Below, piece by piece: positions 1-4,544 of a DNA stretch of 4,544 nt. The notes below the pieces were generated by a model. The model was not told the DNA's origin and made no database searches. It was given only the letters and a program-made list of their open reading frames with translations. The translations under genes were made by a program, and so were the position numbers. The stretch is from a virus (Duplodnaviria; Heunggongvirae; Uroviricota; Caudoviricetes): IMG/VR virus record IMGVR_UViG_3300028911_000051, positions 1 to 4,544 of that record, one strand, 5' to 3'. Numbering within the stretch: the first letter of the stretch is position 1; every line of letters begins with the position of its first letter.

Positions 1-24
1 GTCATGTTTTTCAGGCATCTTCAT
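1..24 (-). CDS. S: Class I holin S, N-terminal 8 codons only (gene continues beyond window start)
   Basis: Minus-strand ATG at 24..22 and a second ATG at 18..16 give MKMPEKHD, the Met-Lys-Met dual-start N-terminus of lambda-type holin S (S107/S105). Lies directly downstream of Q and pR'. Only 24 nt are visible. Confidence 0.6.
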
Positions 25-30
25 GTCTTA

Positions 31-44
31 CCCCCAATAAGGGG
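31..44 (-). promoter_or_regulatory. Shine-Dalgarno-containing stem-loop upstream of the S dual start
   Basis: Minus strand reads CCCC-UUAUU-GGGGG followed by UAAGAC-AUG; the G-run serves as the SD and is sequestered in a 4-5 bp hairpin. Matches the known lambda arrangement in which RNA structure controls S107 versus S105 initiation. Confidence 0.5.
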
Positions 45-138
45 ATTTGCTCTATTTAATTAGAAATAAGGTCGATTACTGATAGAACAAATCCAGGCTA
101 CTGTGTTTAGTAATCAGATTTGTTCGTGACCGATATGC

Positions 139-180
139 ACGGGCAAAACGGCAGGAGGTTGTTAGCGCAACCTCTTGCCA
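139..180 (-). other. GC-rich hairpin followed by GUUUUGCCC in the late leader, about 130 nt upstream of S
   Basis: Minus strand GGCAAGAGGUUG-cgcuaa-CAACCUCCUGCC (12-bp stem, one mismatch) then GUUUUGCC. Terminator-like but with a weak U-tract; function uncertain. Confidence 0.3.
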
Positions 181-315
181 CCCGCTTTCACGAAGCCAGC
201 CATTGCGCTGGTTTTCTTTTATGCAAAGCACACCGCACCGTAGCCACAGCGGATAAGGTGATTATTTTTGTCTGTCTGGTATTTGGTTTGATGTGCTTTC
301 AGAAAGGTCGTGATT

Positions 316-350
316 AAAACGCAAAAAGCCCCGAGATATTAACTCAGGGC
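316..350 (-). terminator. Intrinsic terminator about 30-65 nt downstream of the pR' start (tR'-like, Q-regulated)
   Basis: Minus strand GCCCUGAG (350..343), loop UUAAUAU, CUCGGGGC (335..328), i.e. an 8-bp stem with one G-U pair, followed by UUUUUGCGUUUU (327..316). On the + strand the same hairpin is followed by TTTATTT, so it may work in both directions. Confidence 0.7.
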
Positions 351-374
351 TTTATTTAACGAGTGCATTTATCC

Positions 375-416
375 ATCGTTGATGTCAAATTTACCCAACT
401 TTATTCAAAAAGTCAA
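375..416 (-). promoter_or_regulatory. Late promoter pR' with qut-type elements (Q-binding region between -35 and -10; pause-inducing -10-like element in the initial transcribed region)
   Basis: Minus strand TTGACT (416..411), 17-nt spacer, TAAATT (393..388), then TGACATC and AACGAT (380..375). AACGAT is the -10-like pause element described for lambda pR'. Located 40-80 nt downstream of the Q stop, as in lambda. Confidence 0.75.
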
Positions 417-458
417 TATCATGCCGTTAATATGTTGCCATCCGTGGCAATCATGCTG

Positions 459-1061
459 CTAACGTGTGACCGCATTCAAAATGTTGTCTGCGATTGACTC
501 TTCCTTGTGGCATTGCACCACCACAGTGCGTGACCAGGTGGGTTGAGTAAGGTTTGGGATTAGCATCGTTACAGCGCGATATGCGGCGCTTGCTGGCATC
601 CTTGAATAGCCGACACCTTTGCATCTTCCGCACTCTTTCTCAACAACTCTCCCCCACAGCTCTGTTTTGGCAATATCAACCGCACGACCTGTACCGTGGC
701 AATCTCTGCATCTTGCCCCCGGCGTCGCGGCACTACGGCAATAATCCGCATAAGCGAATGTTGCGAGCACTTGCAGTACCTTTGCCTTAGTATTTCCTTC
801 AAGCTTTGCCACGCCACGGTATTTCCCCGATACCTTGTGTGCAAATTGCATCAGATAGTTGATAGCCTTTTGTTTGTCGTTCTGGCTGAGTTCATGCTTA
901 CCGCAGAATGCAGCCATTCCGAATCCGGCTTGTGATTGCGCCATCCCCATAGCAGCCATCACATCAGTACCGGAAAGAGAGTCAGAAGCCGTAGCCCGTG
1001 GTGAGTCGCTCATCATCGGGCTTTTTGGCGAATGAAATTTAGCTACGCTTTCGAGTCTCAT
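459..1061 (-). CDS. Q: Late-gene antitermination protein Q (lambda-type)
   Basis: 200-aa ORF with ATG at 1061..1059, GAGGGG SD about 8 nt upstream, TAG stop at 461..459. The translation is lambda-Q-like throughout, including the CRDCHGTGR...CGRCKGVG zinc-binding CxxC...CxxC pair, and is followed by pR'/qut. Confidence 0.93.
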   Translation of the reverse strand: MRLESVAKFHSPKSPMMSDSPRATASDSLSGTDVMAAMGMAQSQAGFGMAAFCGKHELSQNDKQKAINYLMQFAHKVSGKYRGVAKLEGNTKAKVLQVLATFAYADYCRSAATPGARCRDCHGTGRAVDIAKTELWGRVVEKECGRCKGVGYSRMPASAAYRAVTMLIPNLTQPTWSRTVVVQCHKEESIADNILNAVTR

Positions 1062-1246
1062 GGTCTTCCCCTCTTGCCCTGTTTGACCATCAGGACGCCG
1101 TTAACTATTACGTGACGCTCGCCTTTGCTGTCTCGGTTGTACTTGAGCACTGTTCCTCTTGCGCAGGAAAGCATCCTCGCCACTTCGGTCTGATTGCCTC
1201 GTGTCTGGATAAGAAGCTCTGGTATCGTTTGAATTGTGGCGTTCAT
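1058..1246 (-). CDS. ninH: NinH-like small DNA-binding protein
   Basis: 62-aa ORF containing GNQTEVARMLSCARGTVLKY, a helix-turn-helix segment characteristic of NinH. ATGA overlap with rusA stop (1246..1243) and with Q start (1061..1058). GGAGA SD 5-6 nt upstream. Confidence 0.85.
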   Translation of the reverse strand: MNATIQTIPELLIQTRGNQTEVARMLSCARGTVLKYNRDSKGERHVIVNGVLMVKQGKRGRP

Positions 1247-1605
1247 ACGTTCTCCAGTTCGGTGATTTTTATTCCAAGCCTTCCGCCTGGTACTTTCACG
1301 CCACGAATTACGCGAATGTCATCGAATTGCTCGTCGTCTTCCGCAAATCCAGCGTGGATAAGGGAGTCGAGTAAACCTTTCAGGATGTTGTCGAGGTCGC
1401 GGCGGCGGGAGTCTGGAACGTCTGCGATGACTTTGATGCGGAGTCGTGATTTGGTGAAAATGTCTAACTTAAGTTGGCGGATGATTTGCTGAACGTCTTT
1501 TCGGTATTTCTGGCCTTTATCGCTGATGTAGTATTGGCTTCCCCGTCTTCGCCAGTAGGTATTCACCGACGGCGGGTATGGAAGCACAAACTGATATTCG
1601 TTCAT
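1243..1605 (-). CDS. rusA: Holliday-junction resolvase RusA
   Basis: 120-aa ORF, the typical RusA length, with the acidic catalytic cluster RRRDLDN and a later DD/E. AAGGAGG SD upstream. Start overlaps the ybcO-like stop (ATGA at 1605..1602). Confidence 0.93.
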   Translation of the reverse strand: MNEYQFVLPYPPSVNTYWRRRGSQYYISDKGQKYRKDVQQIIRQLKLDIFTKSRLRIKVIADVPDSRRRDLDNILKGLLDSLIHAGFAEDDEQFDDIRVIRGVKVPGGRLGIKITELENV

Positions 1606-1892
1606 GACTTAATCTTCCCCTCCTTCAGCAGTATCGCCTGCGTCCTGATCACTCCTTCGAGGTGGTAAAGTCTGGCGTCTTTGTTGTCGAGGTTATGGGT
1701 GCGTCGGTCGATCTCCGCGTGGCAGTCACTACAAGCCCATGCGCCGATCAGGTCGTCAGGCTTCATTCCCGTTCCGCAAATTCCAGCCATCCGGTAATGT
1801 GCCAGAACTGTAGTTTCAGGATTACCATTGCATATGCCGTAAATACGTACCTGGCATTCTCTGCCGCGTGCTTCTTTGCGTAGGTTAGCCAT
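1602..1892 (-). CDS. ybcO: YbcO-like protein (DUF1364 family, putative Zn-binding nuclease)
   Basis: 96-aa ORF with a Cys/His-rich pattern (C..C..H...C..C.DCH) and a position immediately upstream of rusA, as for ybcO in the E. coli DLP12 prophage. Start overlaps the stop of the preceding ORF (TAATG at 1894..1890). Confidence 0.8.
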   Translation of the reverse strand: MANLRKEARGRECQVRIYGICNGNPETTVLAHYRMAGICGTGMKPDDLIGAWACSDCHAEIDRRTHNLDNKDARLYHLEGVIRTQAILLKEGKIKS

Positions 1893-2161
1893 TATGGTTC
1901 GCTCCAGTAATTCTCAATTGCAGCAGCCATTCTCTGCATCCACTCAGCCAGCTTTAACGCGGCTTCTCTTTCAGAACCACATTTAGGGAAATCCTTCATT
2001 TCCATGCTGGCCTTATATGTTCTGAATGCCAGGTCTCCGGTAATAACCAGCTCCTGATCAAGCACAGAGCGTTTATTCCGGTGTTGAACGTAATAGACAG
2101 ATTCAGCCCGCATTTCTTCTCTGTCTTTTTTGAAGGAAATAAGCTCAGAGAAATCACTCAT
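1892..2161 (-). CDS. Hypothetical nin-region protein (89 aa, family not recognised)
   Basis: ORF with ATG at 2161..2159, GAGGAAG SD about 9 nt upstream, charged and helical-looking composition, embedded in the coupled operon. No confident family assignment from memory. Confidence 0.7.
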   Translation of the reverse strand: MSDFSELISFKKDREEMRAESVYYVQHRNKRSVLDQELVITGDLAFRTYKASMEMKDFPKCGSEREAALKLAEWMQRMAAAIENYWSEP

Positions 2162-2324
2162 CGTCTTCTTCCTCGTACATTGAGCTATTCGGATCGCTCA
2201 TCAGCTCTGCGCAGCAATCGGAGCACACGTGAACTTCCAGCACATGCAGCTTCTGACCGCAGTTAGCGCACGTTAAAGCCCGCTCGACGCTTTCTTGTTC
2301 GTAACTTCGATTTGGGTCAATCAC
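2154..2324 (-). CDS. ninF: NinF-like small Cys-rich protein (56 aa, GTG start)
   Basis: Own translation, not in the supplied ORF track (below its length cutoff): GTG at 2324..2322 overlaps the ninE stop (GTGA) and has a GAGGAAA SD 7 nt upstream. Product (M)[55 protein letters not shown] has a CxxC...C..CC zinc-ribbon-like motif as in lambda NinF. Its 3' end overlaps the next ORF by 8 nt. Confidence 0.6.
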
Positions 2325-2503
2325 CTTGTTTTCCTCGCACGTTCTCTAAGCCACCGGATATCCCACAGGTGAGCCGTGTAGTTGAAGGTTTTTACGTCAG
2401 ATTCTTTTGGGATTGGCTTGCGTTTATTTCTGGAGCGTTTCGTTGGAAGGTATTTGCAGTTTTCGCAGATGATGTCGGTGATACTTCGTCGCTGTCGTCT
2501 CAT
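2321..2503 (-). CDS. ninE: NinE
   Basis: 60-aa basic protein [60 protein letters not shown] starting at the internal ATG 2503..2501 (AGGAGGG SD 6 nt upstream), which overlaps the methyltransferase stop (ATGA). The ORF track's longer 90-aa form begins upstream inside the methyltransferase gene and is less likely. Confidence 0.85.
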
Positions 2504-3027
2504 GCCGCCCTCCTGACGCCCTGCCCGATCGCCATCAATGCCGCTTTGGATACGGTAGTAAACATCCGTCGAGGACTGATGAACGGTCGCCAAATCAGCA
2601 GCATGGAACCTTTGCTGTTTCCCTTCTTCTCCAGCCCTGTCGATGGTTCGATAAAATTAATCCGTCCATCAGTGATAATACGAACTTCGTCAACACTCTC
2701 CAGAGCATTGCTGAACCATCCGACAGACATATCCTCTGGCACAAGCATCACTACCGTCTGTCGCTGTTGTATGCACTGCTCAGCGGCTTTTTCCACCCAC
2801 GGCCTGATATTGCTGTACGGTGGGTTATTCCAGATTGCACCGTGGCTTACCCACTCAGAATTGAGCGCGTCGTCGGCCTCAGTTAACCAGTGAGCGCACA
2901 GAGCATTTTTGTCGCTCGCTGCCGAATCCAGCCAGAATCCAAACTCAATATCCAGCGCATCAAAAAGCCAAAGCGGCGTTTGCCAGCAGTCCTTGTCGTG
3001 TGCTGGCGTATTTGATTTGATAGTCAT
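2500..3027 (-). CDS. Phage Dam-family DNA N6-adenine methyltransferase (orphan)
   Basis: 175 aa from ATG 3027..3025, which overlaps the ninB stop (ATGA) and has an AGGGAAGG SD. N-terminal D..WQTP..LF motif and the NPPY catalytic motif (motif IV of N6-adenine methyltransferases) are present. Occupies the ninC slot. An alternative start at 3054 inside ninB is possible. Confidence 0.88.
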
Positions 3028-3470
3028 GCAGCCTTCCCTTTTCGTTGTGACCATTCATACTCTCGCCGGGAGTCATCACTCCACCGCACTTTGCGCTCTG
3101 AGCCGAACCAGAACATGATTTCGATAAGCTCAGTCATGCTGGCCTTTCGCATTTTGCTGGTACGCACGCCAAGCATGACAACGCCACCGTCGATACCAGG
3201 CACACTTCGTTGCTCCAGTTTTTTGGTCTTAAGCCACAGGGCAGTGAACAGGTCTTTCCAGTCTTCCGGCGCCAGCCGTTGACCATGCCATAGCACCTGA
3301 CGCGAAACATCGTTCAGCATCGGCCACATACGGTCATTCTGCGCTTTGCTGCGTTTGGGTTCTCTAACGTGGACTTCGTGAGGTGACTTGTCGTCGATCG
3401 GAAGTGAGAGTATTGCGTCTATGGCGTTGTTTCTGATTGCTTCGTTGCGAAGCATGTATATTTGCTTCAT
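3024..3470 (-). CDS. ninB: NinB (Orf-family recombination mediator)
   Basis: 148-aa ORF (lambda NinB is of similar length) with the conserved core ...QN...W..L.DVSRQV.WHG... and C-terminal ...R.W...GSERKVRWSD... recognisable as NinB, though diverged from the lambda protein. ATG at 3470..3468 with GAGG SD 6 nt upstream. Confidence 0.9.
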   Translation of the reverse strand: MKQIYMLRNEAIRNNAIDAILSLPIDDKSPHEVHVREPKRSKAQNDRMWPMLNDVSRQVLWHGQRLAPEDWKDLFTALWLKTKKLEQRSVPGIDGGVVMLGVRTSKMRKASMTELIEIMFWFGSERKVRWSDDSRREYEWSQRKGKAA

Positions 3471-3477
3471 CGTTACC

Positions 3478-3684
3478 TCAACTCACAAAACGCCACGCCA
3501 CTTTTGCTACGACAACAGGCATAACACCGATAATCACCCACAGGAAAATGCTACCGAAAAGCACACCCACCAGGTCTTTACCTTCGCCTAACAACCGGAC
3601 AAAACTGCTGGCAACCACAATGAACGTCGCCACCATCCACATAGCACCGAGAATCCTCAATGCAGAAAAAATCAACTCAACCAC
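3478..3684 (-). CDS. Small predicted inner-membrane protein (68 aa, two hydrophobic helices), unknown function
   Basis: GTG start at 3684..3682 preceded by a strong SD GGGGGAGGG (3699..3691, 6-nt spacer). Two hydrophobic stretches (about residues 13-32 and 39-61). The stop overlaps the ninB SD. No family recognised. Confidence 0.55.
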   Translation of the reverse strand: MVELIFSALRILGAMWMVATFIVVASSFVRLLGEGKDLVGVLFGSIFLWVIIGVMPVVVAKVAWRFVS

Positions 3685-3700
3685 GATCTACCCTCCCCCA

Positions 3701-3731
3701 AATAAAAAGGCCTGCGATTACCAGCAGGCCT
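3701..3731 (-). terminator. Intrinsic terminator downstream of the helicase gene (tR2-like position)
   Basis: Minus strand AGGCCUGC (3731..3724), loop UGGUAAUC, GCAGGCCU (3715..3708), a perfect 8-bp GC-rich stem, followed by UUUUUAUUU (3707..3701). Unidirectional, because the + strand has no T-tract after the stem. Confidence 0.65.
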
Positions 3732-3759
3732 GTTACAAGCTCAGTGATGTAGATGGTCA

Positions 3760-4544
3760 TCAGAATCCTCCTTTCTTCTTGGACTGCGGTTCCTCGCGTT
3801 CACGGCGGCGCATTTCAGCAGACTGTTGGTCTGTGTCATAAATAGCGCCATTTGCCTGAATGCAATACACCGTGCCGGTATTGCCATGACGATTGAGACG
3901 AAGGATTAGTTCGGTTTCACCAGGTGGAACACTGTCATCAAAAGCACCTTCACGATGGATCCCCACCCAATAATCGCAATCCTGTTCAATCTGCCCTGTA
4001 TCTCGTGAGTCACTTGGTAATGGGCGTTTATTGGTTCGGCTTTCCAGTGCGCGGTTAAGCTGTGTCAGAAGCACAACAACGCAATCAAGCTCTTTGGCAA
4101 GGTTCTTCAGTCCTTTGGTGATCATGCCGTAAGCAAGGTCGTTGCGATCGGCCTTTTCAGCGGTCATTAGTGTCAGGTAATCGACCAGAATCATGCCAAC
4201 GCATCCTTTTTCTCGCTTGATTCGACGGCTTTCGCTGACGATTTGAGCCAGAGATAATCCCGGCGTGTCGTCGATGTAAAGCAGGTCGATTTCACTCAAG
4301 CGATTGGCTGTTTCGATCGCCCTGTTGAAGTCACCATCGTAATCACCCTGATAGCCGTCATCAGCGTCATTTGTCGCCGGAAGGTAAAAAATATTCGGGT
4401 TAACACCTGACTTCTGTCCTACCAGTTTTTCCAGTATCTGATCACCTGGCATTTCAAGGCTGAACATCAGAGCGGGCTTTTTCTCATGCACTGCGCAGTT
4501 GATTGCCATCTGGCTGTATAGCGTCGTTTTCCCCATCTTAGGGC
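3760..4544 (-). CDS. DnaB-family replicative DNA helicase, C-terminal RecA-like domain (5' end of gene lies beyond the window end)
   Basis: ORF runs to the window edge. It shows ..GKTT (end of Walker A), ILVDYLTLM (Walker B/H2), LLTQLNR (H3 with arginine finger) and SRDTGQIEQDCD (H4-like), typical of DnaB and phage P22 gp12-type helicases. TGA stop at 3762..3760. Confidence 0.9.
   Translation of the reverse strand, partial: PKMGKTTLYSQMAINCAVHEKKPALMFSLEMPGDQILEKLVGQKSGVNPNIFYLPATNDADDGYQGDYDGDFNRAIETANRLSEIDLLYIDDTPGLSLAQIVSESRRIKREKGCVGMILVDYLTLMTAEKADRNDLAYGMITKGLKNLAKELDCVVVLLTQLNRALESRTNKRPLPSDSRDTGQIEQDCDYWVGIHREGAFDDSVPPGETELILRLNRHGNTGTVYCIQANGAIYDTDQQSAEMRRREREEPQSKKKGGF

Follow-up and report, generated by a model that had tools for sequence, protein, structure and literature searches.

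A phage Dam-family orphan N6-adenine methyltransferase in the nin region of a lambdoid phage

Gene content of the locus

The window analyzed here is the whole 4,544-nucleotide stretch (positions 1 to 4,544) of the virus record IMGVR_UViG_3300028911_000051 (Caudoviricetes). It covers the early-right (nin) region of a lambdoid phage, and every gene named in Table 1 lies on the minus strand. The gene under study, dam, is situated between ninB and ninE and is predicted from its sequence to encode an orphan phage methyltransferase of the "Dam" family that modifies adenine at N6. Its open reading frame (ORF) runs from 3027 to 2500 with 528 nt and 175 amino acids. When the ATG at 3027 is taken as the start, these limits agree exactly with an earlier interpretation made from the letters alone (the sequence-only reading), which had left the strand unstated. 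A longer in-frame version of 184 amino acids from an ATG at 3054 is also open; the ATG at 3027 is the start in every annotated homologue and fits the N-termini of 47 aligned relatives.

The absence of a restriction endonuclease partner, already claimed for the window, was borne out by Pfam and phrog assignment of the remaining ORFs, which were identified as DnaB-like helicase, NinB, NinE, NinF, YbcO, RusA, NinH, Q, phrog_1165 and phrog_1258. The products encoded on either side of dam are NinB and NinE, and the nin-region nucleases YbcO and RusA are encoded at least three genes away. With no cognate nuclease gene adjoining dam, the locus does not have the make-up of a Type II restriction-modification system.

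The gene had also been described as embedded in the nin operon in place of ninC. The operon context stands, but since lambda carries both ninC and ninD between ninB and ninE (ninB-ninC-ninD-ninE, against ninB-dam-ninE in the window), dam replaces ninC plus ninD and not ninC alone. By BLASTN, homology to lambda (94%) resumes at window position 2496, equivalent to lambda 42097 and 7 nt into ninE, which places the downstream mosaic breakpoint at the dam/ninE junction itself. This only mapped lambda breakpoint thus coincides with an overlapping gene junction. In the same comparison the ninB allele of the window gave no lambda-like DNA match, and the Q/pR' segment as well as a 69-nt block around a hairpin upstream of ninB were lambda-like at 94-96%.

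Table 1. Features of the window, with positions counted from its first letter.
Feature	Position	Strand	Basis
DnaB-like helicase, C-terminal part	4536-3760	-	ORF list and Pfam
tR2-like intrinsic terminator	3708..3731	-	terminator scan: 8-bp stem, 6 GC pairs, T-run
68-aa hydrophobic ORF	3684-3478	-	phrog_1165, family without known function
ninB, 148 aa, upstream neighbour of dam	3024..3470	-	PF05772, 162 bits
Shine-Dalgarno-like AAGGGAAGG inside the ninB 3' end, 4 nt upstream of the dam ATG	3032..3040	-	minus-strand read AAAAGGGAAGGCTGCATGA
ninB stop (TGA)/dam start (ATG) overlap, ATGA	3024..3027	-	read directly; same 4-nt overlap annotated in VT2-Sakai, 933W, 434 and ECP1
dam coding sequence, 175 aa, phage N6-adenine DNA methyltransferase (M.EcoVT2Dam allele, K107N)	2500..3027	-	PF05869, TIGR01712
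DCWQTP, N-terminal motif, residues 13-18	2974..2991	-	read from sequence
FWLDSAAS, residues 31-38, candidate degenerate motif I binding S-adenosylmethionine	2914..2937	-	beta-strand 31-36 in AlphaFold2 model
NPPY, catalytic motif IV, residues 68-71	2815..2826	-	read from sequence
Conserved segment, residues 121-140, candidate DNA-recognition element	2608..2667	-	conservation; AlphaFold2 model
dam stop/ninE start overlap, ATGA; downstream mosaic breakpoint against lambda	2500..2503	-	read directly and lambda BLASTN
ninE, 60 aa, downstream neighbour of dam	2321..2503	-	PF05322, 146 bits
ninF	2324-2154	-	family assignment
89-aa ORF between ninF and ybcO	2161-1892	-	phrog_1258, family without known function
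ybcO	1892-1602	-	
rusA	1605-1243	-	
ninH	1246-1058	-	
Q	1061-459	-	lambda-type
Promoter-like site downstream of Q, TTGACT-17-TAAATT	416-388	-	
Terminator-like hairpin downstream of Q, strong, 11-bp stem	353-325	-	

Family assignment, motifs and fold

The dam product matches both profiles of the phage Dam family over nearly their whole length. PF05869 (Dam) scored 218.2 bits against a cut-off of 28.1 (E=7.5e-65, profile positions 1-167 of 169), and the NCBIfam equivalog TIGR01712 (phage N-6-adenine-methyltransferase) scored 265.9 bits against 97.05 (E=9.8e-80, positions 1-165 of 165). The protein thereby shows the full-length hidden Markov model match, the motifs and the small single-domain build that define this family of T1, HP1 and VT2 Dam enzymes, whose members have about 170-240 amino acids, a Rossmann methyltransferase fold and no separate target-recognition domain (TRD). 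The assignment to a phage Dam-family adenine methyltransferase, together with the D.WQTP and NPPY motifs on which the sequence-only reading had based it, is thus upheld as far as PF05869/TIGR01712 is concerned. It does not imply homology with E. coli Dam, with which only the Rossmann core is shared.

Conservation was traced along an alignment of 47 homologues. D13, W15, T17 and P18 of the N-terminal motif are invariant or nearly so and are also common to T1 and HP1 Dam. L33, D34 and A36 of the FWLDSAAS strand are invariant, as are N68, P69, P70 and Y71, which are likewise found in T1 and HP1 Dam, where NPPYS corresponds to residues 68-72. Further downstream, G121, R122, F125, K139 and G140 are invariant, and R122, F125, I126, T130, G131, N137 and K139 are conserved among the window protein, HP1 Dam and T1 Dam. 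Residues 121-140 form a loop flanked by short strands in the model and may constitute the DNA-recognition element of an enzyme without a separate TRD.

DCWQTP may be the equivalent of motif X ("xxTP") in gamma-class amino-methyltransferases, which it resembles, while FWLDSAAS would represent a degenerate motif I by analogy with motifs of the LDPACGSG type. The resulting order of an N-terminal xxTP, an LD(S/A)AA strand and NPPY looks gamma-class-like. A sequence search of the PDB returned no meaningful match (best E=0.24, SdiA). By fold, the model lies nearest to PCIF1, M.TaqI and type I M subunits; because none of these exceeds 19% identity, the name "Dam" reflects the reported product rather than homology to E. 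coli Dam.

Distribution and conservation

The window protein is identical in 174 of 175 residues (99.4%) to the dam product of VT2-Sakai (H0105, BAA94133.1), known as M.EcoVT2Dam. The sole difference, K107N, falls in a column that varies between K, L, A, S and N among homologues. At the nucleotide level, copies of the 528-nt gene with 97-99% identity occur in 244 phage records, in which ninB is always located upstream and ninE usually downstream. Phages carrying it include VT2-Sakai (where it is named dam), 933W (L0094), 434, HK97 (gp62), HK140, mEp043, ECP1, CP-1639, Phi24B, whose protein is 100% identical to that of VT2-Sakai, and many Stx1- and Stx2-converting (Shiga toxin) phages.

Among 5,426 complete E. 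coli genomes, 1,566 (about 29%) contain the gene, with up to five copies per genome. It is named "phage N-6-adenine-methyltransferase" there by the annotation pipeline PGAP, and a 100% identical copy was present in two genomes. A prophage of E. coli GDSC2239PM matches the window from end to end with 99.5% identity. The sequence-only reading had put the gene forward as worth a second look, a suggestion that loses its force because annotations of the enzyme exist in hundreds of phage records and in over a quarter of the complete E. coli genomes, and its near-identical twin is reported to methylate GATC. The gene is real but ordinary: already known and extremely common. As a finding it therefore matters little.

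Seven alleles (window, VT2-Sakai, phi345, CP-1639, ECP1, 933W and 434) were compared, and all of them are intact ORFs of 175 amino acids. Differences between them are mostly synonymous, with ratios of nonsynonymous to synonymous polymorphism (pN/pS) of 0.02-0.12 over the 21 pairs, a pattern indicative of strong purifying selection.

In 61 phage records, including P27, phi345, TL-2011a and many Stx2a phages, and in the E. coli genomes H162/H163, a gene of 200 amino acids with an HNH endonuclease signature is located between ninB and dam. In vB_EcoP_phi345 it occupies L005:3025-3627. The insertion point is precisely the ninB/dam junction. Phages that lack the HNH gene nevertheless have, at the 3' end of ninB, a match to about 31-34 nt of that gene's dam-proximal end, so that the insertion apparently leaves the sequence preceding the dam start intact. 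A role as a hidden restriction partner of dam was considered for this endonuclease and rejected, as its NUMOD4, HNH_3 and I-HmuI-like domains are a homing-type architecture and the gene is absent from the window.

Transcription and translation of dam

The counterpart of the 69-nt hairpin block in lambda is 40566-40634 (96% identity), which falls between ren and ninB. This is the interval in which we take lambda tR2 to lie on the lambda map, and the hairpin of the window was named accordingly. As this tR2-like terminator lies upstream of the nin genes, dam is placed in a delayed-early transcript that depends on N antitermination. No convincing internal promoter was found for dam: the one match to the consensus (9 of 12 positions) at 2702-2675 lies inside the gene and was dismissed as evidence, since shuffled sequence contains more matches of this kind than the window.

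Most junctions from ninB to Q overlap. Six of them share 4 nt (3024-3027, 2500-2503, 2321-2324, 1602-1605, 1243-1246 and 1058-1061), with the letters ATGA read directly at the two dam junctions, while ninF and the 89-aa ORF overlap by 8 nt and the 89-aa ORF and ybcO by 1 nt. This arrangement fits translational coupling along the nin operon. For dam itself, the phage 434 record annotates a ribosome-binding site at the position equivalent to AAGGGAAGG.

Methylation target

The target of the enzyme had been held to be unreadable from the sequence; near-identity to M.EcoVT2Dam makes GATC specificity inferable in practice. Because the early region of VT2-Sakai has no second annotated methyltransferase, the REBASE entry "M.EcoVT2Dam of E. 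coli prophage VT2-Sa" can be equated with the counterpart of the window gene. This enzyme was cloned in 2001 and reported to methylate GATC, and it is described as "known to target 5'-GATC-3'" in PMC6602927, citing Radlinska & Bujnicki 2001. With 99.4% identity and a single substitution in a non-conserved column, the window enzyme most probably methylates the adenine of GATC as well. VT-2, HP1 and P1 are listed among phages with Dam-like genes (PMC7556043). GATC itself occurs 13 times in the 4.5-kb window, compared to 17 (mononucleotide) or 24 (Markov) expected sites, a count that was set aside as uninformative about function.

Role of the methylase and alternative explanations

The identity, intactness, conservation, context and fold class of the gene, combined with the GATC specificity and the undermethylation of lambda DNA known from the literature, are best explained by a small single-domain GATC N6-methyladenine (m6A) methylase dependent on S-adenosylmethionine (AdoMet), acting in the delayed-early phase and topping up a limiting host Dam on replicating phage DNA, and we consider this role likely. 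Once the prophage is induced or a cell infected, transcription from pR, antiterminated by N, would pass the tR2-like terminator, so that dam would be expressed only in lytic growth or upon induction, a timing that we infer from the gene order. Dam would be translated in series with ninB and ninE through the ATGA overlaps and would move the methyl group from AdoMet to the adenine N6 of GATC on replicating phage DNA. Host Dam is limiting for DNA that replicates this fast, and most likely the phage enzyme brings the progeny DNA to full GATC methylation. Lambda, which has no dam, packages DNA that is about half-methylated at GATC, with 0.46% m6A compared to 0.92% expected (PMC3299994), and its undermethylation is also stated in bioRxiv 10.1101/2025.08.29.673000. 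The benefits to the phage may include a shield against restriction systems of the next host that cut GATC and are blocked by its methylation, avoidance of the MutH cleavage to which unmethylated DNA could be exposed, and independence from the dam status of the host.

An unlikely alternative is that the main role is exerted in the lysogen, where low prophage expression would add to the activity of host Dam and tune GATC-dependent regulation, such as lysogeny stability and host gene expression. The Phi24B copy is expressed in lysogen cultures, its protein was recovered with a lysogen-specific antiserum, and the authors proposed a supplement to host Dam in lysogens (PMC3342100). The same article cites Murphy et al. 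2008 for a requirement of host Dam in stable 933W lysogeny, and the presence of up to five gene copies in one E. coli genome points in the same direction. Against this, dam belongs to the repressed pR operon, where a tR2-like terminator precedes it, and has no convincing promoter of its own. Some cells of a lysogen culture are moreover always induced spontaneously, and induction brought a significant change in the Phi24B transcript, so that these expression data are compatible with expression in an induced sub-population. The methylomes of Shiga toxin-producing E. coli are 99.9% GATC-methylated with either zero or two copies of the gene (PMC6602927), which leaves little room for an added effect.

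Rather improbable is a second alternative, in which GATC methylation is merely a readout of over-expression and the enzyme at native levels has another or additional substrate, be it relaxed or near-nonspecific DNA contexts or RNA, possibly with a partner protein. Its background is M.EcoPA8orf6770P (similar to M.EcoGV), a "DNA adenine methyltransferase" of Stx prophages annotated as GATC-specific that is reported to be a 16S rRNA methyltransferase acting with a partner, PNB-2 (PMC10810198, 2023 NAR). This reassignment of an MT-A70 "Dam-like" enzyme calls for care with "Dam-like" specificities deduced from over-expression. The window protein has no MT-A70 match in Pfam, carries NPPY as its motif and is encoded at the ninB-ninE locus, and is not a member of that group. 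In a milder form of the same idea, GATC might be read through the compact conserved segment at about residues 121-140 in a recognition mode absent among solved structures.

That dam has no function and is a decaying or inactive remnant travelling with the mosaic nin region is very improbable: the gene is dispensable for lambdoid growth, as lambda itself lacks it, and no deletion phenotype was found in the literature, but all catalytic motifs are intact, the gene is kept in the 244 phage records and in 1,566 E. coli genomes, the near-identical enzyme is reported in PMC6602927 to methylate GATC, and the low pN/pS across seven full-length alleles already largely refutes such a reading.

The residual interest of this probable GATC methylase lies in how a 175-aa enzyme without a TRD reads its target, and in its benefit to phages of dam+ hosts, for which the literature search found no deletion phenotype.

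Other features of the window

The 68-aa ORF between the tR2-like terminator and ninB is very hydrophobic and probably encodes a small membrane protein. Neither Pfam nor NCBIfam gave a match for the 89-aa ORF, which with ybcO and rusA fills the position of lambda ninG. Downstream of Q, the promoter-like site and the start of the strong hairpin lie within the segment that is 94% identical to the lambda Q/pR' region; the match ends at window position 367 because the lambda locus used stops at 44600. The two elements are presumably the late promoter and an early terminator of the late transcript. An antisense ORF of 193 amino acids (2312-2893, plus strand) opposite ninE and dam has no Pfam or family match and was treated as spurious, probably a chance frame opposite a coding region. 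A scan of the window with Rfam returned nothing at gathering thresholds.

Relation to known methyltransferases

Several groups of adenine methyltransferases bear the name Dam or are annotated as GATC-specific, and the window enzyme differs from most of them. E. coli Dam, T4 Dam and DpnM belong to the alpha class, with which it shares the reported product G6mATC, an AdoMet-dependent Rossmann core and a (D/N)PPY motif. It has neither the D12-class homology nor the DPPY, the FxGxG motif I and the inserted TRD by which that class is recognized. The non-specific adenine methyltransferases Hia5, Hin1523 and Nma1821 resemble EcoDam and DpnM, have about 281 amino acids, DPPY and FxGxG motifs and a divergent TRD, and replace mom in Mu-like prophages (PMC3299994). 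None of these features was found in the window protein, and relaxed specificity by analogy with Hia5/Hin1523 was set aside because they form a different subfamily.

M.EcoGV and M.EcoPA8orf6770P are, like the window gene, prophage-borne orphan adenine methyltransferases annotated as GATC-specific, and the same Stx phages can carry both types (PMC6602927, Table 3). They differ in being partner-dependent MT-A70 enzymes with a DPPW motif, encoded as gp5 near int at about 3 kb (PMC10810198), and identity of the window gene with this rRNA methyltransferase was ruled out on these grounds. The distinction is drawn from the description in PMC10810198 and the Pfam result of the window protein; an attempt to locate gp5 in phage PA11 reached a DUF551 protein instead. 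Stx phages can therefore carry two unrelated "Dam-like" genes, a PF05869 gene by ninB and an MT-A70 gene near int, which are both labelled GATC in REBASE-based annotation and are easily confused by annotation pipelines and readers. A further prophage "Dam homolog", M.EcoMIV of the ST131 strain EC958, was silent by RT-PCR (PMC4659465) and may or may not be the window gene.

Outside bacteria and phages, a literature search for PF05869 led to articles on fungal DIRS/Ngaro retrotransposons and Phytophthora 6mA methyltransferases (PMC3783388, PMC6211444), a hint that this compact fold may have eukaryotic relatives.

The founding members of PF05869/TIGR01712, T1 Dam (AAP49979.1) and HP1 Dam (orf13, NP_043482.1), are named as relatives in the VT2-Sakai annotation. 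Their identity to the window protein is only 32 and 35%, respectively, and T1 Dam is longer, with 237 amino acids, an N-terminal extension and an internal insertion. All three proteins share DxWxTP, LD (L33, D34), NPPYS and RxxFI...TG...N.K, and all are orphan enzymes encoded in early or replication gene clusters. T1 Dam is likewise known as a GATC-specific enzyme. Closest of all is M.EcoVT2Dam of VT2-Sakai, with identical or near-identical copies in 933W, Phi24B, HK97, 434 and CP-1639. The phage of the window is not a Stx phage; its Q is of the lambda type and it carries ybcO and rusA as a module. The two enzymes agree in length, in the ninB-dam-ninE position and in the ATGA overlaps, and are effectively the same gene.
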